A model generated the notes under the pieces. The model was given only the letters and a program-made list of their open reading frames with translations. It made no database searches and was not told where the DNA came from. Positions 1-26,812 of a DNA stretch of 41,665 nucleotides are shown piece after piece. The stretch comes from an uncultured Rickettsiales bacterium (GTDB lineage: Bacteria; Pseudomonadota; Alphaproteobacteria; Rickettsiales; UBA1997). Within the stretch, counting starts at the first letter, position 1. The number at the start of each line of letters is the position of its first letter. Location of the stretch: assembly GCA_937927795.1 (NCBI GenBank), contig CALBSF010000204.1:1-41665 (forward strand), written 5' to 3'. A program made the translations under genes and the position numbers.

Positions 1-3000
1 GGAAGAGAATTAACTTTGAGCTCAACCGCGATTACCAACGATGATTCAATTTATGCTGGTAATAAAATTAACATCACCGCCTCAAATTATCTTACTAACA
101 ATAAAGACATAATTTCTCTTGGGCTTGGCTTAACTGATGAAACTACTGATGACGGCATCTTGATTACTGCAAAAACTCTGAATAACAATAAGCAAATTGC
201 TGCTAAAAATAATATCACCATCAATTCAAATGCTCTTAACAACAATACTTCAAACAGCAAAATCCTTGCGCTTAACGACATCAATTTAAATGCGGTTTTG
301 GTTGATAACAGTAACGCCAATATCAAAGCAGCAAATAATCTTGTTCTTCGCAATCTAACTTTAAATGCGCCAACAATTGCTGGAAATTTTGGCGTTACTA
401 ATCAGGCAACCAGCCTAACTAACACTAACGGAACTTTTTACGCTGGCAACTTTCTTGATTTTGATTTGGGGAATTTAGCTGATTACACAATCATTGGAAA
501 TCTTCAAAGTTCAGGAAATTTAAAGATAAAAGCAAACAACATCACTAACCAAACTAACCTTCAAGCTGATGGCGATATTGAAATTGAAGCGGCTGATAAA
601 TTCATCAACGGCGTTTTATCAGGTGATAATTCTAACACCAAAATTACTTCAGGAGCCGATCTAAAAATCACTTCGAACAATCTTTTAAGCAATTACGCAA
701 CCCTTTCATCGGGAACTGATCTTGCTCTTACCTCAAGATATGGAAACATTAACAACAACACTAATGCCGAGATTATTGCCGGTAAAAGATACCAAGTAGA
801 ATTAGAAGATGGTAGCAAGGTTTGGATTAATACCGGTGCTTTATCACTTTTGGCAAAAAACGGAACTGTTAATCAAAATTCTTTAAACTCGATTGTTGTT
901 AATGGCGATTATTCTTTGGATGTAACTGATTTTGTAAATACCGGACGCGTTGATGTTGCCGGAAATTTAACGCTGAATGTTTCTAACAATTTGGTGAATG
1001 AAGCATATGCCATGATCTTTTCCGGTGGCAATATGAACCTGAATGTTGCTGGTAGTCTTATCAATAATTATAGATCGGTAATTTACTCTGAAGGCAATTT
1101 AACGATTCAAAAATATGCAGAGCTCAATTCTGACGGAAGCGCAAATCCGCTTTACAATCCTTTAAACAACCGCATAACTTCACTTACCAATTATGGTAAT
1201 ATCGAAACTTATCTCGGTAAAAATATCACCATCAAAGCTGAGAATTTTTTAAATAGCAGAACTGTTGATCCGGTAAGTGGGCTTATCGGCACTAACACTA
1301 ATTGTGTATTAACTGGCGGTGGTGGAATTGATTGCGGCGCATCAACAGCATATAGAAAAGCCGCTAATCACGATCTTTACAGTTGGACATATACTGGCGG
1401 CAATAATTGGGGAGAATTCGGTCGCACCAACTATTACACCACAACTCAAGGAACTGCCAATTCTGCTTCAAGAGCTGCAATAATTTCTTCGGGCGGAACG
1501 TTAAACATCGATTCAGGAACATTCAGCAATTACATATCGGAAATTTATTCCAAAGGCAACATGACGATCAGTGCTAACAACACTGATAATTTTAATAAAT
1601 CATTTACTTATGGAAGAACAGTAACTTTAACCGAAGTTTATGACGGAATTGGGGGCTGGCCATCTTGGTGCGGTGGTGGTAGTCCGTGCAGAAATAATTC
1701 TTACTCTTTCTCAAACTACGCCACTTCTAATGCCTATATTAAATCAGGTGGATCGCTAACTGTTACCAGAAATGGTTCCACAACAACTTCCTGGACCAAT
1801 GGTTCTGATATGGATGATTATGCTGCCGTGGGTGGCGGCGAAGGAAGAGATTTAAATTTAGTGAATAACATCGATGTTAATGTTTTAGGAACTACTGGCA
1901 CAGTTAATACTGACATAAGCGGATATTTTAACGGACCTGACAACAACGGATTATTTAACAGAAATCCAAATCCAAACGGACCGCTTTTTGAAACTAGAAG
2001 CCAATTTATTGATCAAAGTAAATTCTTCGGCTCTGATTATTTTTATCAAAGAATCGGTCTTGATCTAACCGATGTTCAAACTCAGTTCGAATTGCAAAAT
2101 AAAAGATTGGTTGGTGATCAGTTTTTCCAAACAAAAATTATTGAGGAACAACTTCGCACCATTTCTAAAAACTCATTTTTACTTTCAGCAAACGAAACCA
2201 ACATCAATAATGAAATCAAAAATCTTCTTGATAATGCCGCTGATGAATATGCTCGTTTAGGATTAAGCACTAACGCAACACTTACTCAAAGCCAAATAAA
2301 CAGCCTACAAAAAGACATTATTTGGTTTGAAACCAAAACCATTGATGGAAATCTTTATATTGTTCCAACGATTTATCTGACTCAAGCAACAAGAGATGCT
2401 CTTAAAAATGGTAATATTGCCTCACAAGCCACCATCTTTGGTAAAGACTCTGTCACCATAACTTCAAATGGTGGCATCAAAAATTCAGGATCAATCGTTG
2501 GTAGCAATGTTACACTTACTGCAAGCAATGATATCATAAATAAAAATTTCTCTGATATCACCGCACTTAATAATTTAAGCCTAACTTCTACTGCCGGTTC
2601 AATCACCAACTTTTCACAGCTTAAAGCCACAGGTGCTTTATCAATTTCTGCTGCTAAAGACATCACAAATACCTCAACAGTTTTAACCAATGCTAAAAAC
2701 CTTCTTGATAGCGAAAATGTTGCTTACTTACAAAGCAATGGCGGTGCCTCAAATAGCGGAAATCTTAAATCAACAATTTTTGAAACTGCGGGAATTTCTG
2801 CAGGAAGCCTAACTGTTAATGCTGGAAATGATTTTACTAACCAAGCGGCAAATATCACAGCAACAAAAAATACCTTAGCTGATAGCTCTACTACTTCAGG
2901 AAATCTTTCAATCACAACCGGTGATGATATCACTATCAGCACTTTAGAACTTCGCAATCGAACCGAAGAATATTGGGGACATAAAAGTAAAGGTGGCAGC

Positions 3001-6000
3001 AAAATCACCGATACAACAACTAATGTCGCAAGTAATATCAATATTGGAGGCAATCTTGATATTACTTCAACCGGACTTTCTGACACTGCAACCACCGCCA
3101 GCATCAATATAATTGGCAGCAATGTAAATGTTACAGGAAACGGCTCTCTAACTTCTGATTTTGGCAATGTTAATATTGCTAATGCGATTGATTCGAAGAT
3201 GACTGAAGAAACTTCTTCTAAATCAGGAACTTTCCATTCTCGTTATGATTCAGTTTATGATTACAAAGAAACTGCCGCTGAATCAAAATTAAATTTCGGT
3301 GGAAATTTAACTGTTAATGCTGAACTTGGAGAAACAAACTTAATTGGTTCAACTATTAAAACCAACGGTAATCTAAATATTGGCAGTTTCATGATTGCAC
3401 AGAATCTTGACGGATCATATAAAACAAATGCTGACGGAACTTTCCAAACTGTTGATGGTGGATCAGTTGTCGGTGTAAATATTAAAGCAGCAGAACTTCG
3501 AAGTGAGCATTTTGAATCTCATCAAAAATCTAAATTAACTCTTGGTGACACTTTAAAAACTTTAGCTAACCCAGTTAAAATGGGCAAACTTGCTCTTGAT
3601 GCTTATTTATTCATGGCAACTCCAAGCCTTAAAAAAGATGTTTTAGAATTTAATCAAGGTCCGAAATATGAAAGAGCTTCTGCAAAAAGCAGTACTGCAA
3701 CCACCACTCAATATTCATCTACTTTAGATGTTGGTGGCAATATGATAGTCAATTCAACTGGTGATGTTAATATTGTTGCTTCAAATGTTAATGTGACAGG
3801 AAACGCTTTAATGAATGTTGATGGCAATGTTAATGTGCTTTCAGCAGCAGAAAAAACCACCTCAAGCAGCAAGACCGAAGAAATTGAAATTGGTAAATTC
3901 AAATTAACCAGAGATTTAGCTCACGCCTCTGCTTCTGCCGGTGTTGAAGGAACTGGCTCAAGATTTGAAGATTTACTCATAAGCTCAACACAGAAATCAT
4001 CAAATATAAACATTGGCGGATCAATGCTTGCTAATGTTACAAATAATGCAGCAACTCCAGATTCTGGCAATCTAACTCTTGCCGCTTCTAACCTAACAGT
4101 TGGCGGAGATTCCATCATTAAAACAGCAGGAGATTTTAACTTAACTGATGCACAAAATACCTCATCTTACTCTAGCAAAGAAAGCACTTTAACAGTTGAA
4201 GCTGGAGCTAAAGTTGGTAACGCCTATGTTGATGTTGCTTACGCTTGGAAAGCTGTAGTTGATGCACAAAAGAAAGCAATTGAAGCTGTAGAAAAACTTA
4301 AAAAAATGGAAAGATTGCAAGATGAAGGTAAAGCAACCGCAAAAGCTGTTGAACTTGCTGCTGCCCAAGTTGTTTTAGCTCAAACCGCAGTAGCAACTGC
4401 AACTATTGCTGCCTCAGCGGCAACTGCCGGTGCTGCGAGTGCTGCTTCAACTTCCCTGGGAAGCGGGATGTATGCAGCGGGATATTTAAACATAACTTCA
4501 AGCGGAATAAAAAACACCACTGAAACTTCACTATCAAAAGCATCTAACTTTGTTGGTTATGGCGACATCGACATTGCTTCAAACAACAATGTAAATGTTC
4601 TTGGTAGTATGCTTGCTTCAGTTAATGGCAATGTATCTCTAGCAGCAGCCAATGACATTAAAATTGAAGCCGGAACTAACACTCTTTCTCAAACCAGTAA
4701 ACAAGAAACAATTTATGGTGGTGGAAGTGTTGGAAATAATGGCGTTCAAGCAAATTTCGGATTATCAAGCGGTCAATCTGATTATAACAAAATTTCTTAC
4801 ACTAACAGCCAAATCAGCGCAGAAAACGGAGCTCTTAACTTAACCACCGGCAATGATGCTAATATAAACGGAGCAAATCTTTTAGCTAAAAACATAAATT
4901 TAAGTATTGGCAATAACCTCAATGTAAGCAGCAAACAAACTGAGGAAGATTTCTCAAGCAGCGGATTTGGATTTAATTTTGGAGTTGGTGTTGGAGCAAG
5001 CGGCAACGGCGGAAATGTTGGTGGTGGATTTAACATGAGCAACGCTGATATGCACCGCCTTTGGGTTGATAATATCACCACCATCAAAGGAACTGACAGC
5101 ATGGCAGTTAATGTCGGCAAAGACTTAAACTTAACTGGCGCAGCACTTCTTTCTGACAATCTTGCACTCGCAGTAAGTGGTAACGTAAACAAAAAAGACC
5201 TAAACGACAGCTACTATTCTGAATCAATGGGCTTTGGTTTCTCGCAAAACTTCACAACTAATGGAAATCAGCCAACAATACCAGGAACTGGTGGACAACC
5301 GAATCAATTCCCTGGTGGCTCAACCACAATTTCAGGAAATTACGCGCAAAATGAATCATCAAGATCGGTTTATGCAACAATTGGCGGACTTAATTCAACT
5401 TTAACTTCCGCAACTAAAGATGTTACTGGTGGTGATTTTGAAGGAAGTTTGACTTTGGATCATAGGCTTTTCTCTGAATCTGGAAGAAGCGATATCTTAA
5501 AACAACTGAACTACAGTAAAGATTTAGTGGTGATTCCAGTCGGAACTCTTTACGAGGCTTACAATCAGAAAGGAGAAATAAGAACGGCGGCAGATGGAAC
5601 AAAACAAGGCGGTGGAACTAATGTCATTGATTCACTAGGCAACAAATATTCTACCCTTCAGGATTTAATGTTTAATCCTAAACTAACCGCTAAAGAAGTA
5701 GCTCCAGATTCAAAAGAACTAATCGCTTATGATGGAAATGATATTAATAAAAATTCTGATGCTGCTGGTGCCAGAGAATTTTATGATAGAAGCAAAGATA
5801 CTTTAGCAGTTAATATAGGAGCAAATCAAACGGATGCGGAATATGCAGGAGCGTTATCTCATGGCAACTATCATGCTCAGGTTGATAACAAAGGTATATT
5901 ATACTCACAAGCTGAAGAAAATACTGCTCATAATATTGGGGATTTCACGCAAAGCAGATGGGATACCTATCAATCTGGTAACACCAATTTCCAATTAACA

Positions 6001-6735
6001 CTTCCGACAGTAATTGCGGGCAACAATAGTTATGCGAATGGAGTGGTGTTCAACAATAATGTAAACCCTCTTATTATTGATAAAGCAGCCAATGCCATTA
6101 AGCCTGGTTTAGGCGACTCCATGAATAGTGGTCTTAAAAATTTCAAAGAAAATTCTTTAAACAACATTGCTGATAAATATGTAAGTTCAAAAGACCCAAT
6201 AGAAAAAGCCGGATTAGCCGTAATGCTAGGAATTGGATCAGTCGCTCTGCCAGAATCAGTCACTGATTTAGAGCTTACTGCTGCTATAGGCGGAGCAAGT
6301 AAAGCTTACGCTCCACAGCTTGCAGTAGGAGCTAATAAGGTGGATGATGCAGCGAGTGGATTGTGGAATAAGTTGTTTAGGGGGTCTGCTGAAGTTGCAA
6401 ATCCAATTCCTGAGAATTTAGCTAGAGTTGTTGCAGGAAGTAAGCCTCCGACCATGCTAGGGTTACCAAATAGCTCAGATGTTTTTGTAACAGATGCTAA
6501 AATTTTAGAAGGATTAAAGCCTTCAGAAATTTCACATTTATTAAAAATAGAAAAAAGTAATAGCTACAGCATAACCACCATTCCTTCAAAAGAGGTTACA
6601 GGAATAGCAACGCCAATAAATAGAACTAATCCTGGTTTTGTCGGTGGTGGAAGAACCGTTAACGGAGCTCCTGAATTTGTTATACCCAATGGACCGATAC
6701 CAAGTAACGCAACAACAAAAATTGTAACGGAATGA
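1..6735 (+). CDS. cdiA: CdiA/FhaB-family two-partner-secretion exoprotein, 5'-truncated by the window edge, with a polymorphic C-terminal toxin region
   Basis: The frame is open from nt 1, so the real start lies upstream of the window. Long arrays of Asn/Gly/Ser/Thr/Ile-rich ~20-aa beta-helix repeats (e.g. 'GNLTLNVSNNLVNE', 'GGNLDITSTG', 'GGNLTVNAELG') are typical of filamentous haemagglutinin repeats. A conserved FhaB/CdiA block is present ('FETRSQFIDQSKFFGSDYFYQRIGLD...LVGDQFFQTKII...DIIWFETKTIDGNLYIVPTIYL'). The non-repetitive last ~225 aa follow a degenerate VENN-like 'VVFNNNV'. An immunity-like ORF and a TpsB gene lie directly downstream. Confidence 0.9.
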   Translation, partial: GRELTLSSTAITNDDSIYAGNKINITASNYLTNNKDIISLGLGLTDETTDDGILITAKTLNNNKQIAAKNNITINSNALNNNTSNSKILALNDINLNAVLVDNSNANIKAANNLVLRNLTLNAPTIAGNFGVTNQATSLTNTNGTFYAGNFLDFDLGNLADYTIIGNLQSSGNLKIKANNITNQTNLQADGDIEIEAADKFINGVLSGDNSNTKITSGADLKITSNNLLSNYATLSSGTDLALTSRYGNINNNTNAEIIAGKRYQVELEDGSKVWINTGALSLLAKNGTVNQNSLNSIVVNGDYSLDVTDFVNTGRVDVAGNLTLNVSNNLVNEAYAMIFSGGNMNLNVAGSLINNYRSVIYSEGNLTIQKYAELNSDGSANPLYNPLNNRITSLTNYGNIETYLGKNITIKAENFLNSRTVDPVSGLIGTNTNCVLTGGGGIDCGASTAYRKAANHDLYSWTYTGGNNWGEFGRTNYYTTTQGTANSASRAAIISSGGTLNIDSGTFSNYISEIYSKGNMTISANNTDNFNKSFTYGRTVTLTEVYDGIGGWPSWCGGGSPCRNNSYSFSNYATSNAYIKSGGSLTVTRNGSTTTSWTNGSDMDDYAAVGGGEGRDLNLVNNIDVNVLGTTGTVNTDISGYFNGPDNNGLFNRNPNPNGPLFETRSQFIDQSKFFGSDYFYQRIGLDLTDVQTQFELQNKRLVGDQFFQTKIIEEQLRTISKNSFLLSANETNINNEIKNLLDNAADEYARLGLSTNATLTQSQINSLQKDIIWFETKTIDGNLYIVPTIYLTQATRDALKNGNIASQATIFGKDSVTITSNGGIKNSGSIVGSNVTLTASNDIINKNFSDITALNNLSLTSTAGSITNFSQLKATGALSISAAKDITNTSTVLTNAKNLLDSENVAYLQSNGGASNSGNLKSTIFETAGISAGSLTVNAGNDFTNQAANITATKNTLADSSTTSGNLSITTGDDITISTLELRNRTEEYWGHKSKGGSKITDTTTNVASNINIGGNLDITSTGLSDTATTASINIIGSNVNVTGNGSLTSDFGNVNIANAIDSKMTEETSSKSGTFHSRYDSVYDYKETAAESKLNFGGNLTVNAELGETNLIGSTIKTNGNLNIGSFMIAQNLDGSYKTNADGTFQTVDGGSVVGVNIKAAELRSEHFESHQKSKLTLGDTLKTLANPVKMGKLALDAYLFMATPSLKKDVLEFNQGPKYERASAKSSTATTTQYSSTLDVGGNMIVNSTGDVNIVASNVNVTGNALMNVDGNVNVLSAAEKTTSSSKTEEIEIGKFKLTRDLAHASASAGVEGTGSRFEDLLISSTQKSSNINIGGSMLANVTNNAATPDSGNLTLAASNLTVGGDSIIKTAGDFNLTDAQNTSSYSSKESTLTVEAGAKVGNAYVDVAYAWKAVVDAQKKAIEAVEKLKKMERLQDEGKATAKAVELAAAQVVLAQTAVATATIAASAATAGAASAASTSLGSGMYAAGYLNITSSGIKNTTETSLSKASNFVGYGDIDIASNNNVNVLGSMLASVNGNVSLAAANDIKIEAGTNTLSQTSKQETIYGGGSVGNNGVQANFGLSSGQSDYNKISYTNSQISAENGALNLTTGNDANINGANLLAKNINLSIGNNLNVSSKQTEEDFSSSGFGFNFGVGVGASGNGGNVGGGFNMSNADMHRLWVDNITTIKGTDSMAVNVGKDLNLTGAALLSDNLALAVSGNVNKKDLNDSYYSESMGFGFSQNFTTNGNQPTIPGTGGQPNQFPGGSTTISGNYAQNESSRSVYATIGGLNSTLTSATKDVTGGDFEGSLTLDHRLFSESGRSDILKQLNYSKDLVVIPVGTLYEAYNQKGEIRTAADGTKQGGGTNVIDSLGNKYSTLQDLMFNPKLTAKEVAPDSKELIAYDGNDINKNSDAAGAREFYDRSKDTLAVNIGANQTDAEYAGALSHGNYHAQVDNKGILYSQAEENTAHNIGDFTQSRWDTYQSGNTNFQLTLPTVIAGNNSYANGVVFNNNVNPLIIDKAANAIKPGLGDSMNSGLKNFKENSLNNIADKYVSSKDPIEKAGLAVMLGIGSVALPESVTDLELTAAIGGASKAYAPQLAVGANKVDDAASGLWNKLFRGSAEVANPIPENLARVVAGSKPPTMLGLPNSSDVFVTDAKILEGLKPSEISHLLKIEKSNSYSITTIPSKEVTGIATPINRTNPGFVGGGRTVNGAPEFVIPNGPIPSNATTKIVTE

Positions 6736-23292: not shown

Positions 23293-23376
23293 AAAAGCGT
23301 TAGACATTTGAGACATTTTCGGGGACTATGTTTAGCAAGAGTCGAAAAGTGTGTTTAAGAAAATCACTTGAAAGAA

Positions 23377-23967
23377 ATGGCAATCATTAGCCTTCAAATT
23401 AAGAGCAAGGCAAGTGATGAGCTTGCTAACATTGCAAAAAAACATATCCCCTTTGCAGTTGCAAAAACACTGACGCAAATAGCGCAACAAAGTCAGGAAG
23501 AAGTTAGAAAAAATATTCGTGAGAAATTTTTTATCAGAAAAAAATCAGGCGGTTTTGAAAGTTCAATTCGAATCAAGCCGGCAACAAAAACAAAATTAAC
23601 TGCCGAAGTTTATACGATGGCTGCCTTTGCAGCACTGCAACAAACAGGCGGTGTTAAACAAGCAAAAGATGGACGGCTTGCAATCCCCTCTTATCAAGCA
23701 ATCAGTCAAGTAAAGAAGAGAAGCGATTCAAACAGTCCATCGTCCTATCTCGCAGGCGATGCGTTTAAGATTAAAACAAAAACAGGCGCAGACGCTATTG
23801 CGCAGCGTAAAGGTAAGGAATTAAAAATCCTCTTCTTCTTGCGTAAGAGCGCGCACATCGACAAGAGATTAGATATGATTGAAATAACCACCAAAACAGT
23901 AAAAGATCGCTTTGACGCGCAGCTAAAGGGCAATGTGAGCGAGGTATTAAATCAAAAGGTACTGTGA
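23377..23967 (+). CDS. Hypothetical phage protein (196 aa)
   Basis: I prefer ATG 23377 to TTG 23368. Clean ORF with no firm family. Confidence 0.55.
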   Translation: MAIISLQIKSKASDELANIAKKHIPFAVAKTLTQIAQQSQEEVRKNIREKFFIRKKSGGFESSIRIKPATKTKLTAEVYTMAAFAALQQTGGVKQAKDGRLAIPSYQAISQVKKRSDSNSPSSYLAGDAFKIKTKTGADAIAQRKGKELKILFFLRKSAHIDKRLDMIEITTKTVKDRFDAQLKGNVSEVLNQKVL

Positions 23968-24030: not shown

Positions 24031-24129
24031 GGTGCGCAGTTGGTGCGCATTTTTAAGTTCTAATCAATAAACAACAGCATTCGCAAGGTGCGCACCTGAA
24101 GCAATTTAGGTGCGCATTTTTTTTGCGCA
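24031..24129 (+). promoter_or_regulatory. Array of GGTGCGCA repeats (four copies) plus one TGCGCA, upstream of the C5-methyltransferase
   Basis: GGTGCGCA occurs at 24031, 24042, 24087 and 24109. TGCGCA occurs at 24124. The copy at 24087-24096 is a perfect 10-bp palindrome, GGTGCGCACC. Three copies are followed by T-runs. Confidence 0.6.
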
Positions 24130-24147: not shown

Positions 24148-25548
24148 GTGTGGATTTACATCCCTTCAGAATTTTATCCCTCTGTTCAGGAGTTGGAGGC
24201 ATCGAGCTTGGATTTAAGCTCGCAGAGCCAACTGCTCGAACAGTCTGTTATGTCGAGATCGAAGCCTTTGCGTGCGAAATCTTGGCTCGCCGCATGGAAG
24301 AGAAAAGATTGGATGCAGCGCCTATTTGGACGAATCTTAAAACCTTCAATGGCAGACCTTGGCGCGGCAAAGTGGATTGCATCACTGGCGGATATCCCTG
24401 CCAGCCGTTTAGTGTTGCTGGAAAAAAACTTGGCACAAACGACCCAAGACACCTCTGGCCAGACATCAAACGACTCATCACAGAAATCGAGCCACCAATC
24501 TGCTTCTTTGAAAATGTCTCCAACCATTTACGAGTTGGATTTGAAGAAGTCGCAAATGACCTACGACAAATGGGTTACAAAATTAAGGCAGGCTTGTTTA
24601 CAGCGCAGGAAGTTGGTGCTCCTCACCAAAGAGAAAGATTATTTATCCTGGCCTACAGTGATAGTTTCGGATCATCTTTGCAATCCGACAGAAACACCTC
24701 AACGCTGGAAAGAAAGAGCGCAGGAGAAAAAAGCAGAAGGAATCAATTTACACAAACCTCTGAGGATTGTTGCTCAGGAAGCATGGCCGACAATAACAGT
24801 GACCGATGCTTCGGTGATGAAAGCAAGACCACCGGAAAAAATGATCAGGAAAGATGGTCGCAACACGTTGAGGAATCCATCTCTGGCGGAAACAATTTTG
24901 CAGCCACAGGATTTTCCAAAGAGCAAAACGGATTTACAGAACAAGATTCAAGGTTTGCCTTACCAGACGAAGAAAGTCTGGCCAACTGTGACAACCCAAG
25001 ACTACAAGAAACGCGGACCGAATTCGATTCAACAAGGATTGCACGAGGAAAGCAGGAACTGGCCGACAGTCAGAACTTCATCTGCAAATGGTGCGAGCAA
25101 GAAAGAAATCGAGATGGGGAATCCAAAGCAGAGGCTGGAAGTTATGATAACGAACTGGCCGACTCCGAGAGCTCAGGAGCCAGGAAGCACGAGCGAGAAT
25201 TATGGCAAGGGTCTGAAAAATACAGCAATCAATTGGTTAACCCCAACTGTGTCAGATTCGGAAGCGGGTTTCAAAGAGAGAACTGGCGACAACATAATGA
25301 TGAGACTTCAGGATCAATCACTGAGAACGACAAAGCAATTTTCGGATGGCCGCCAAGTCCCTCAGATTATGAAAGATGGAACAGAGTCCCAAATCACCTT
25401 AAACCCGCGCTTCACCGAATGGCTGATGGGATGGCCTGTCGGGTGGACAGAATTCGAGCTTGCGGAAACGGAGTGGTTCCACTGGTTGCGGCTTATGCGT
25501 GGCGAACTCTTACGAATGGAATGTATCTTACAAAAGACAATTAACTGA
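24148..25548 (+). CDS. Second full-length ORF in the +1 frame of the methyltransferase gene (WPT-repeat protein ending in 'NPRFTEWLMGWPVGWTE')
   Basis: It is open for 466 codons on the same strand. Its 3' two-thirds contain six 'W(P/L)T' repeat units (SWPTVIVSD, AWPTITVTD, VWPTVTTQD, NWPTVRTSS, NWPTPRAQE, NWLTPTVSD) and a C-terminal motif that I recall from phage methylase-type proteins. The true start is unknown; one candidate is ATG 24556, and frameshifting is an alternative. The 5' third looks non-coding. Confidence 0.4.
   Translation: MWIYIPSEFYPSVQELEASSLDLSSQSQLLEQSVMSRSKPLRAKSWLAAWKRKDWMQRLFGRILKPSMADLGAAKWIASLADIPASRLVLLEKNLAQTTQDTSGQTSNDSSQKSSHQSASLKMSPTIYELDLKKSQMTYDKWVTKLRQACLQRRKLVLLTKEKDYLSWPTVIVSDHLCNPTETPQRWKERAQEKKAEGINLHKPLRIVAQEAWPTITVTDASVMKARPPEKMIRKDGRNTLRNPSLAETILQPQDFPKSKTDLQNKIQGLPYQTKKVWPTVTTQDYKKRGPNSIQQGLHEESRNWPTVRTSSANGASKKEIEMGNPKQRLEVMITNWPTPRAQEPGSTSENYGKGLKNTAINWLTPTVSDSEAGFKERTGDNIMMRLQDQSLRTTKQFSDGRQVPQIMKDGTESQITLNPRFTEWLMGWPVGWTEFELAETEWFHWLRLMRGELLRMECILQKTIN
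24150..25544 (+). CDS. DNA (cytosine-5)-methyltransferase
   Basis: Motif I 'LCSGVGGIELG', motif IV 'GGYPCQPFSVAGK', motif VI 'FENV', motif VIII 'APHQRERLFILA', motif X 'RVDRIRACGNGVVPLVA'. The start is GTG as given in the ORF track. The middle ~220 codons are low-complexity and charged. Confidence 0.85.
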   Translation: MDLHPFRILSLCSGVGGIELGFKLAEPTARTVCYVEIEAFACEILARRMEEKRLDAAPIWTNLKTFNGRPWRGKVDCITGGYPCQPFSVAGKKLGTNDPRHLWPDIKRLITEIEPPICFFENVSNHLRVGFEEVANDLRQMGYKIKAGLFTAQEVGAPHQRERLFILAYSDSFGSSLQSDRNTSTLERKSAGEKSRRNQFTQTSEDCCSGSMADNNSDRCFGDESKTTGKNDQERWSQHVEESISGGNNFAATGFSKEQNGFTEQDSRFALPDEESLANCDNPRLQETRTEFDSTRIARGKQELADSQNFICKWCEQERNRDGESKAEAGSYDNELADSESSGARKHERELWQGSEKYSNQLVNPNCVRFGSGFQRENWRQHNDETSGSITENDKAIFGWPPSPSDYERWNRVPNHLKPALHRMADGMACRVDRIRACGNGVVPLVAAYAWRTLTNGMYLTKDN

Positions 25549-25549
25549 T

Positions 25550-26812
25550 ATGGATGATTTTGCACCAAAAATGGCAGATCACATCGAACTGAAATCGGTC
25601 GATGAATTGATCCCTTATAGCAAAAATGCACGGCTTCACTCAGAGGCGCAAGTGGCACAAATTGCCGCCAGCATCATTGAATTTGGTTTTACCAATCCAG
25701 TTTTGATTGATGGTGAAAAAGGAATAATTGCGGGTCACGGAAGATTAATGGCAGCAAAGAAACTTGGCTTAAAAGAAGTTCCAGTTGTCGTCCTTGATCA
25801 CTTAAGTGAAACACAAAAGAAAGCCTACATCATCGCTGATAACAAGCTCGCTGAAAACGCTGGCTGGGATGAAGAAATTTTGGCAAGTGAGCTCGCTGAT
25901 CTTAAAGACGAAAATTTTAATCTCGATCTGATTGGTTTTGAAGATCAGGAATTAGAAAAAATTTTTGCTAATCTTTATGAAAAAGAAAATGAGCAAGAAA
26001 CAGAGGAAATTCCCGAACCTGAAGAAAAGCCAATCTCAAAGTCAGGTGATGTTTGGATTTTAGGAAAACACAAATTGATCTGTGGCGATTCCACTGATCA
26101 AAAAACTTACCAAACACTTCTTGGTGATGAATTAGCAGATATGCTTTTCACCGATCCACCTTATAACGTGGATTACGGCAACACCATGAAAGACAAAGCC
26201 AGAGGCAATAACAAAAAAATTCTCAACGACAATCTTGGTGAAAATTTTGAAAAGTTCCTTTTCGATTTTTGCAAAAATGCTTTAGAGATAACCAAAGGCG
26301 CGTGTTATGTCTGCATGAGTTCTTCAGAGTTGCACACTTTACAAAAAGCCTTCACAGATGCTGGTGGTAAATGGTCAACTTTCATTATCTGGGCAAAAAA
26401 TCACTTCACTCTTGGACGCTCAGACTATCAGCGGCAATATGAGCCGATCCTTTACGGATGGAAACAAAGCAACGATCATTATTGGTGCGGCGATAGAAAC
26501 CAAGGCGATGTTTGGTATTACAACAAACCAAACAAAAGCGATCTTCACCCAACGATGAAACCAGTTGAGCTTTGCAAAAGAGCAATTCTCAACTCCAGCA
26601 AAACTGATGATATAATTTTGGATTGCTTTGGCGGCTCTGGCTCAACGCTGATTGCATCGGAACAAACCAACCGCAGATGTCGCATGATCGAGCTCGATCA
26701 AAAATATGTCGACGTGATTGTAAAAAGGTGGCAAAATTTGACCGGCAAAGAGGCAATCCTTTTAGAAACCGGTGAGAGCTTTAATGAAATTTTAAAAAGA
26801 GAAAATGACTAA
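25550..26812 (+). CDS. ParB-like nuclease domain fused to an N6-adenine/N4-cytosine DNA methyltransferase
   Basis: I chose the start at ATG 25550. The N-terminal ParB-N fold has 'PYSKNARLHS...GHGRLMAAKKLG'. The methylase has 'FTDPPYNVDYG' (motif IV) and 'ILDCFGGSGST' (SAM-binding motif I), which is beta-class order. Confidence 0.9.
   Translation: MDDFAPKMADHIELKSVDELIPYSKNARLHSEAQVAQIAASIIEFGFTNPVLIDGEKGIIAGHGRLMAAKKLGLKEVPVVVLDHLSETQKKAYIIADNKLAENAGWDEEILASELADLKDENFNLDLIGFEDQELEKIFANLYEKENEQETEEIPEPEEKPISKSGDVWILGKHKLICGDSTDQKTYQTLLGDELADMLFTDPPYNVDYGNTMKDKARGNNKKILNDNLGENFEKFLFDFCKNALEITKGACYVCMSSSELHTLQKAFTDAGGKWSTFIIWAKNHFTLGRSDYQRQYEPILYGWKQSNDHYWCGDRNQGDVWYYNKPNKSDLHPTMKPVELCKRAILNSSKTDDIILDCFGGSGSTLIASEQTNRRCRMIELDQKYVDVIVKRWQNLTGKEAILLETGESFNEILKREND

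Follow-up and report, generated by a model that had tools for sequence, protein, structure and literature searches.

How can one stretch of DNA carry two conserved protein motifs on the same bases, and what is made from it? The question is raised by a gene at 24148-25548 of a 41,665-nucleotide (nt) contig assigned to an uncultured Rickettsiales bacterium (CALBSF010000204.1, positions 1 to 41,665, forward strand), referred to below as the window. Near the 3' end of this gene, positions 25417-25449 read EWLMGWPVGWT in one frame (frame B), and, starting one base earlier, positions 25416-25481 read RMADGMACRVDRIRACGNGVVP in another (frame A). We consider it probable that the gene encodes a two-polypeptide C5 DNA methyltransferase, whose chains are read from twin starts in two overlapping frames of the plus strand.

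The original prediction, made by reading the sequence, had described this twin stretch together with five W-P-T units of frame B that pair with [L/M]-A-[D/N/Y] units of frame A. It had raised the possibility that two motif families in databases are shifted readings of one ancestral or co-maintained DNA segment. Re-translation of the window reproduces the twin stretch exactly, and all five pairs are found (24646, 24781, 24976, 25057, and 25153), together with a sixth, NWLTP/QLVNP, at 25231. These six positions are the starts of the W-(P/L)-T modules of frame B, the number of which differs among relatives.

Two open frames over one gene

Frames A and B are both free of stops over ~1400 nt, and their overlap equals the entire gene length (~1.4 kb, both on the plus strand; Table 1). 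They form the sole long overlapping stop-free pair in the window. The third plus-strand frame has 28 stops across the gene, and the +1 frame of the other long open reading frames (ORFs) of the window has 5.4 stops per 100 codons. The GTG starts of the two frames lie 2 nt apart, and each is the earliest possible start codon past the upstream in-frame stop.

The openness of the two frames was compared with a synonymous-randomisation null, in which codons are shuffled while the protein sequence is retained (5000 randomisations). With residues 1-172 of frame A retained, 6.8 ± 2.1 stops are expected in frame B; with residues 173-400 of frame B retained, 17.9 ± 3.3 stops are expected in frame A. No stop is observed in either case, and zero stops were reached in 0/5000 randomisations for both. 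The twin pattern lies far beyond chance.

Table 1. Features of the two-frame gene and their positions in the window
Feature	Positions	Strand	Content	Basis
Frame A ORF (proposed alpha chain)	24150..25544	+	464 amino acids (aa) and TAA stop; motifs I-VIII, linker, motif X	ORF list
Frame B ORF (proposed beta chain)	24148..25548	+	466 aa and TGA stop; +1 relative to frame A	ORF list
Twin start GTGTG	24148..24152	+	frame B GTG 24148-24150; frame A GTG 24150-24152	
Frame A catalytic (large) domain	24150..24665	+	residues 1-172	Pfam, AlphaFold2, Foldseek, diversity
Frame A linker	24666..25346	+	residues 173-399, ~225 aa; polar, predicted disordered, unselected, stop-free	
Frame A C-terminal piece	25347..25541	+	WPPSPSDYERW..LKPALHRMADGMACRVDRIRACGNGVVPLVAAYAWRTL; pre-X segment and motif X	
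Frame B leader	24148..24645	+	residues 1-166, ~165 aa; overprinted on catalytic domain, stop-free	
Frame B selected region	24646..25398	+	six W-(P/L)-T modules and pre-motif-IX segment; proposed target-recognition part	
Frame B motif IX-like segment	25399..25449	+	LNPRFTEWLMGWPVGWT	hhalign to ShiLan gp70; selection in Rhodobacteraceae clade
Frame B tail	25450..25545	+	EFELAETEWFHWLRLMRGELLRMECILQKTIN; overlaps frame A motif X; W..W..LMR conserved	
Doubly coding stretch	25416..25449	+	EWLMGWPVGWT (B) over RMADGMACRVD (A)	

Frame A carries motifs I (LCSGVGG), IV (GGYPCQ, within GGYPCQPFS), VI (FFENV), and VIII (QRERLFILA) of the C5 DNA cytosine methyltransferases in one chain, all of them within its catalytic domain. 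The frame matches Pfam PF00145 (E 6.3e-38, residues 6-237) and the NCBIfam model TIGR00675 (E 1e-30; 107.5 bits against a cut-off of 100.65), and it has an exact database protein match (P0121). AlphaFold2 predicts a mostly confident Rossmann-type domain for residues 1-175, with a block predicted local distance difference test (pLDDT) score of 50-94 and a dip at residues 86-92. A Foldseek search with this folded domain matched M.HhaI and M.HaeIII at E ~1e-11 to 1e-12 (3.5e-12 for M.HhaI).

The linker of frame A is predicted with pLDDT <50 at residues 193-397 (block means 28-46), and no target-recognition domain or motif IX is found between motifs VIII and X of this chain. At the C-terminus, motif X is recognized by pattern as RACGNGVVPLVAAYA, with GNGVVP at residues 439-444, and a helix at residues 442-454 is predicted with pLDDT 82-86. 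The alignments to Pfam and to hidden Markov models of the PDB do not extend to this motif.

Frame B matches no Pfam or NCBIfam model, and its profile retrieves chance capsid matches only from the PDB sequences. It does match phrog_1008 (E 4.8e-22), and a word-indexed search returned 536 homologues, of which many span the full length and none has a Pfam domain. Among 1.84 billion representatives of 50%-identity clusters, the frame B profile matches 29,825 at E<=1e-3 and 2,743 at E<=1e-30, the best matches beginning at profile position 1-2. Searches of GenBank phages were empty both for the gene (blastn) and for frame B (tblastn), and against plasmids frame B yielded a single weak match (tblastn). 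The segment that precedes motif IX reads SDGRQVP in the window and LLGRQAP in relatives. The tail, which is retained in distant relatives, contains a predicted helix at residues 438-465, with a block pLDDT of 76-81 over residues 451-466.

A 378-aa protein from a Logan contig (P0066) combines an N-terminal cytochrome bd-type membrane segment (PF01654) with a C-terminus of the frame B type (78% identity to the window) and probably results from a chimeric assembly.

Conservation and selection in the two frames

We gathered 175 related loci, 168 of them distinct, from IMG/VR and GTDB genomes. Most of the loci in GTDB genomes are prophages in Alphaproteobacteria, including the isolates Rhodobacter capsulatus SP18, Paracoccus yeei CCUG 46822, and Paracoccus versutus DSM 582. 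Within the range of frame A, the +1 frame has 0-2 stops in almost all 175 loci (GC content 0.42-0.72), compared with 4-34 in the +2 frame. The end of frame B usually lies 4-25 nt beyond that of frame A.

In 140 of the 168 distinct loci, a motif IX-like segment is present in the +1 frame and RVD..GN in frame 0, and in all of these the register is that of the window, the V codon of RVD being followed exactly one base later by the W codon of GWT. The twin motif is therefore not confined to the sequence in which it was noticed. Both motifs are recurrent family signatures, as the original prediction had held, and in these relatives the alternative frame encodes the other motif and stays open.

The same loci bear on the idea that the two frames result from a sequencing or assembly frameshift in a metagenomic contig. 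Relatives that resemble indel hybrids do exist (P0068, P0089, L115, and L138), but an indel error produces one broken frame and not two frames that are open throughout. The layout is moreover shared by 140 independent loci, the three isolate genomes named above among them, and we regard such an artefact as scarcely credible.

The starts of the two frames are closely associated across the family. The frame B start codon is found 1-2 codons ahead of a conserved W in all 140 loci with a detectable W-motif (140/140). Relative to this codon, frame A starts 4 nt upstream in 100 loci, 2 nt downstream in 37, and 5 nt downstream in 3. The start regions read GTGTGGAT in the window, ATGTGGAT in L005 and L006, and ATGCATGACCTGG in the Rhodobacteraceae clade, and in several relatives GGAG or GAGG is located a few bases upstream of the starts.

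Which frame is selected was read from the diversity per codon position in 52 unique equal-length genes of the Rhodobacteraceae clade, compared without gaps. A1, A2, and A3 denote the codon positions of frame A, and A1 is the third position of frame B. In 20-codon blocks, codons 1-180 have a diversity of 0.03-0.12 at A1, 0.01-0.13 at A2, and 0.12-0.34 at A3, the signature of selection on frame A. Over codons 181-320 the corresponding values are 0.21-0.34, 0.03-0.11, and 0.015-0.08, and it is frame B that is selected. The switch from one signature to the other is sharp, at about codon 175 between RERLFILA and NWPTP, with a short stretch that is variable at all three positions. A3 is the most diverse position over codons 1-175, and A1 over codons 177-320. 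Codons 316-320 (TGGCCGCCAGGTCCT), which read WPPGP in frame A and GRQVL in frame B, have a diversity of 0 at A1, A2, and A3.

Further downstream the two signatures meet. Codons 337-352 (LNPLFVEALMGWPTGWT) follow the frame B pattern. At fourfold sites of frame B no variation is seen wherever the site doubles as the first base of one of the conserved frame A residues G343, D345, R350, V351, and R353, whereas sites over frame A residues that are not conserved do vary (pi ~0.3). Selection on frame A resumes at RVD: from codon 353 onward A3 varies at most codons, and the frame A sequence RLRLCGNGVVPLVAAHALRTL is therefore selected. In this same part, A3 is frozen and A1 variable at the W, W, and RMR codons of frame B. 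Motif X is invariant in two sequence alignments, and the C-terminal piece of frame A is invariant or nearly so across one of these. The signatures of both frames are thus interleaved over codons 337-381. Approximately 65 codons (~200 nt), including the 34-nt twin stretch, are selected in both frames. The remainder (~1.2 kb) is under selection in a single frame, while the other only stays free of stops.

The W-P-T pairs are of a different nature. The [L/M]-A-[D/N] reading is indeed forced by the codons, as the original prediction had argued, but these units do not constitute a motif family. In this region the first codon position of frame A is the most variable one, and the L-A-[D/N] reading is an unselected shadow that W-P-T forces on the other frame.

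The clade of the window (7 sequences) shows the same succession, from variation at A3 to variation at A1 to a mixed pattern. In this clade, divergence at fourfold sites is 0.04-0.17 in the frame A catalytic domain, compared with 0.20-0.39 in the adjacent ParB-methyltransferase gene (24150-24665 against 25550-26812 in the window, L001-L003, L017, and L018, at equal amino-acid identity). This corresponds to a ~3-fold synonymous depression, and none is seen in the Rhodobacteraceae clade. Stop avoidance does not account for it at GCN, GGN, CCN, and ACN codons. The depression may reflect selection on the leader in some lineages, RNA structure, or recombination.

One-chain and two-chain relatives and the origin of the twin motif

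Mycobacterium phage ShiLan gp70 has the same parts as the window in the same order: catalytic domain, (L/W)PTP modules, FSEWMMGWPxGW, and GNGVVP. In this protein a single chain runs from the catalytic domain through LLPTP modules to FSEWMMGWPAGWVT and then RIIGNGVVPQQAA. With hhalign, the frame A profile aligns to gp70 residues 2-158 (99.9%, E 9.4e-36), and the frame B profile (window residues 401-438) aligns to residues 318-355 (95.2%, E 2.7e-8). Unlike in the window, all parts of gp70 are in one frame, and the +1 frame has stops. By these alignments, each frame of the window is homologous to a different part of the single-chain enzymes.

Other relatives are split with a short overlap. In L012-L014, the catalytic domain occupies one ORF, and the modules and motifs IX and X occupy a +1 ORF, with 99 nt between IX and X. 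Mycobacterium phage MeeZee gp78/gp77 comprises a catalytic ORF followed by a +1 gene with a 23-nt overlap, which likewise carries the modules and motifs IX and X. This layout is that of M.AquI, which is broken after motif VIII: its alpha chain contains motifs I-VIII together with a portion of the variable region, and its beta chain the remainder of that region and motifs IX-X. The window departs from it in having motif X in the alpha frame and an overlap that is not short but extends over the full gene length.

Because one-chain and split relatives carry them separately, motif IX and the pre-X/X segment are distinct elements. The twin motifs accordingly represent two different functional elements, namely motif IX in frame B and the segment leading into motif X in frame A, which came to share bases in the lineage of the window. 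The proposal that two motif families derive from one DNA segment holds insofar as the two are co-maintained on the same nucleotides and both selected. It does not hold as regards a common ancestral motif read in two frames, since single-frame relatives (L012-L014 and ShiLan gp70) carry both motifs successively in one frame. The "frame B family" of the databases is the +1 reading of C5-methyltransferase (PF00145) genes.

These comparisons, together with the diversity patterns, make it very improbable that frame B is not a gene and owes its openness to base composition or to the amino-acid content of C5-methyltransferases, its homologues being miscalled shadow ORFs. Shadow homology does occur in this family (P0092_45), and high-GC genomes have few stops in alternative frames. 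However, the frame is also open at GC contents of 0.42-0.55, and its openness fails the synonymous-randomisation null. The signature over codons 177-352 is that of frame B and not of frame A, which contradicts this explanation directly. Furthermore, single-chain relatives such as ShiLan do have +1 stops, the frame B profile aligns to the part of ShiLan that carries motif IX in frame, and an enzyme without frame B would lack a target-recognition domain and motif IX.

The ORF P0092_45 lies at 1455-1874 of Streptococcus phage P0092 (L179, KY705252.1), in the +1 frame inside a complete single-chain C5-methyltransferase. It is annotated as "DNA methyltransferase" and has neither modules nor motif IX. 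It is probably a shadow ORF that took its name from homology to frame B leaders, an annotation artefact that can propagate.

Nested arrangements are known in a few cases. M.EcoHK31I of Escherichia coli HK31, described in 1995 by Lee, Kam & Shaw (as related in PMC2836561 and PMC3404938), has an alpha chain with motifs I-VIII, motif X, and the target-recognition domain, and a beta chain with motif IX. The whole beta chain is read from a different frame of the alpha gene, and neither chain can be dispensed with (PMC2836561, PMC3404938). Compared by description, the window resembles this system in that a single gene encodes two polypeptides, in two frames of the same strand. The second ORF of the window lies in an alternative same-strand frame within the alpha gene. 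The sequence, the selection pattern, and the ShiLan match all place motifs I-VIII and X in alpha and motif IX in beta. In contrast to M.EcoHK31I, frame B spans the whole gene (466 codons versus 464) and starts 2 nt from the alpha start and not internally. In the window, alpha has an unselected disordered linker from motif VIII to motif X, and the modules are in beta, whereas M.EcoHK31I has its target-recognition domain in alpha.

In Paenibacillus phage Shelly (NC_041909.1), gp56 is annotated as "g55 internal gene" and is a +1 ORF nested in gp55. Like frame B, gp56 has W-x-T-P modules and LNPEWVECLMGFPIGWT, and the outer gp55 has motifs I-VIII and X. Unlike frame B, it starts at about outer codon 62 and ends ahead of the pre-X/X segment. 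Given these start and end points, Shelly has no twin start, and its motifs IX and X do not share bases.

The A/B and D/E pairs of phiX174 are the classical overprinted phage genes, on the same strand in different frames. There, a novel protein was overprinted on an older one, whereas the window holds two parts of one ancestral enzyme. Also unlike classical overprinting, the overlap in the window is mostly "carrier" sequence that is selected only to remain without stops, and ~200 nt are dually selected.

Proposed expression of the two frames

In the arrangement that we favour, the alpha chain (frame A) would consist of the S-adenosylmethionine-binding catalytic large domain (motifs I-VIII), the linker, and, folded back against the large domain, a C-terminal helix of the pre-X segment and motif X. 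The linker would need only to stay open, so that motif X stays attached to alpha. The beta chain (frame B) would start 2 nt upstream of the alpha start and read through the ~165-aa leader overlapping the catalytic domain. Past the leader it would provide the DNA-recognition part, composed of the W-P-T modules, the motif IX-like segment, and the conserved tail (the small domain). Alpha and beta may then assemble into an active enzyme, as in M.EcoHK31I, and the 34-nt twin motif would be the bases common to motif IX of beta and the pre-X segment of alpha.

We infer that both frames are translated, that both are initiated at the twin starts, and that the chains heterodimerise. Co-initiation of two chains is favoured because the frame B leader is open, the starts are adjacent (140 loci), and the tail past GWT is selected. 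The two-polypeptide model is also favoured because no conserved shift site is present at either junction between the frames.

The beta chain might instead begin at an internal start near the modules, the open leader and the upstream start having some other cause. In M.EcoHK31I the start of beta lies within the alpha gene, and at least the first 42 residues of this chain are dispensable in vitro (PMC2836561). Shelly gp56 likewise begins internally, and the amino-acid sequence of the frame B leader shows no visible selection in the Rhodobacteraceae clade. Nevertheless, no internal Met is conserved across the clades; that of ..KSQMTYD.. is missing in L005-L009. Approximately 7 stops would be expected in a leader that is not translated, yet the leader is open in relatives down to 36% identity. 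The short distance (1-2 codons) between the frame B start codon and the conserved W, in every locus with a detectable W-motif, also argues against an internal start, which we consider unlikely.

The alternative of a single chain would involve two programmed frameshifts, from frame A by +1 into frame B after motif VIII, and by -1 back into frame A between motifs IX and X. This route recreates the canonical order of motifs I-VIII, target-recognition domain, IX, and X, as in ShiLan gp70, and selection passes from A to B to A in the same succession. It is compatible with the stops that three loci (L029, L105, and L106) tolerate in the frame A linker and with L160, where one frame contains catalytic domain, modules, and motif IX. 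In two loci, motif IX is read in frame 0 and motif X in +2, in the same register.

However, no conserved shift site is present at the first junction, where all three positions of codons 171-176 vary in the Rhodobacteraceae clade, and the window has no X_XXY_YYZ heptamer between motif IX and RVD. Frameshifting requires neither a frame B that is open and equipped with a start from its 5' end nor a frame A that is open over the linker, and both are found in ~140 loci. In addition, the frame B tail past GWT is selected in its own right, and the two overlapping motifs cannot both fit whole in a single chain. A frameshifted single chain is thus unlikely.

Two candidate shift sites were examined. One is the slippery heptamer A_AAC_CCG at 25401, which the Rhodobacteraceae clade does not conserve. 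Transcriptional slippage was considered at the A7 tract just past motif IV (24422-24428), and this tract is likewise not conserved in that clade. The relative P0068 switches from the frame A to the frame B reading exactly at the A7 tract (..FSVAGK|SLEKKTQD..), which could be a homopolymer sequencing error or slippage.

Two IMG/VR loci, L160 and L169, contain an (AC)n tract, read as THTHTH, between the W-P-T modules and motif IX, and the frame relation differs between them. In L160 the catalytic domain, modules, and motif IX share one frame, and in L169 the modules are in the +1 frame and motif IX is again in frame 0. The tract could be a phase-variable frame switch.

Several observations weigh against the two-polypeptide, twin-start reading. 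In L029, L105, and L106, the frame A linker is interrupted by stops and the motif X piece is retained. Either continuity of alpha is not always required, or these copies are decaying. A leader of ~165 aa is costly and without evident function, and both M.EcoHK31I and Shelly gp56 start beta internally. The target-recognition domain is not found in alpha, where M.EcoHK31I has it. For frame B, AlphaFold2 yields a poor model (mean pLDDT 53.5), with which a Foldseek search returned nothing below E=3. Finally, motifs IX and X are identified by pattern and by hhalign to ShiLan, and the Pfam and PDB profiles never reach them in any construct. In Pfam scans of an A-B-A chimera, a short construct of catalytic domain with IX and X, a short A-only construct, and the frame B C-terminus, the profile stopped by motif VIII; in a phmmer search of the chimera against PDB sequences, the alignment was confined to residues 5-168.

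In L029, L105, and L106, WPPGP..RVDRLRLCGNGVVP is intact behind an in-frame MGN(A/T).. start, and frame B is fully open. These loci may be three-piece enzymes or decaying copies.

Spread, annotation, and flanking features

The kind of system is already known, from M.EcoHK31I (1995) and from nested genes in a few phage records. Three aspects look new, namely the full-gene overlap with twin starts, the location of the recognition modules in beta, and a spread far wider than the view of a "rare exception" would allow. Two-polypeptide C5-methyltransferases have been treated as rare exceptions, represented by M.AquI and M.EcoHK31I only (PMC3404938). In the literature searched, we found no account of the three aspects named, nor one that treats two-frame C5-methyltransferase genes across the family or the Paenibacillus "internal gene". 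In a large prophage lineage of Alphaproteobacteria the nested form appears to be the rule, and phages of Firmicutes have it too.

We give an even chance to the broader proposition that a very large phage and prophage family (at least 2,743 clusters at E<=1e-30) consists of full-length, same-strand, two-frame genes with twin starts and one ribosome-binding site, divided into selected and carrier segments, and that the enzyme is formed from the two products. If so, few pairs of overlapping genes on one strand would be longer or more widespread in prokaryotic viruses. Both frames appear to be driven from neighbouring start codons, and the subunit stoichiometry would be set by competition between starts 2-5 nt apart.

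The arrangement has consequences for annotation, since gene finders call just one of the two frames. Thousands of frame B "hypothetical proteins" would be recognition subunits of C5-methyltransferases, and annotated frame A "DNA cytosine methyltransferases" would be without their recognition part. The gene also offers a clean natural case in which sequence selected in both frames (~200 nt) can be separated from sequence that is kept open only (~1.2 kb). Naturally split methyltransferases serve as scaffolds for targeted methylation (PMC2836561), and the differing numbers of W-P-T modules among relatives point to a recognition subunit that is modular.

The window represents the genome of a temperate phage, with genes for a serine integrase, helicase, primase, large terminase, portal, and major head protein. 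The ParB-domain methyltransferase gene starts at 25550, 2 nt past the TGA of frame B and 6 nt past the TAA of frame A. The TAA (25542-25544), the TGA (25546-25548), and the ATG at 25550 are packed into 11 nt, which suggests that the ParB-domain methyltransferase is translationally coupled to both frames.

On the upstream side, short GC-rich palindromes with T runs are located at 24032-24048 and ~24107-24125 (GTGCGC...GTGCGC; TGCGCA-T8-GCGCA), between a minor-tail-like gene (23368-23967) and the start of the methyltransferase gene. A consensus scan classes them as terminator-like, and their GGTGCGCATTTTTTTTGCG motif is also present upstream in L001 and L003. At the start of the contig, a single ORF of 2239 aa fills the first 6.7 kb of the window (16-6735).

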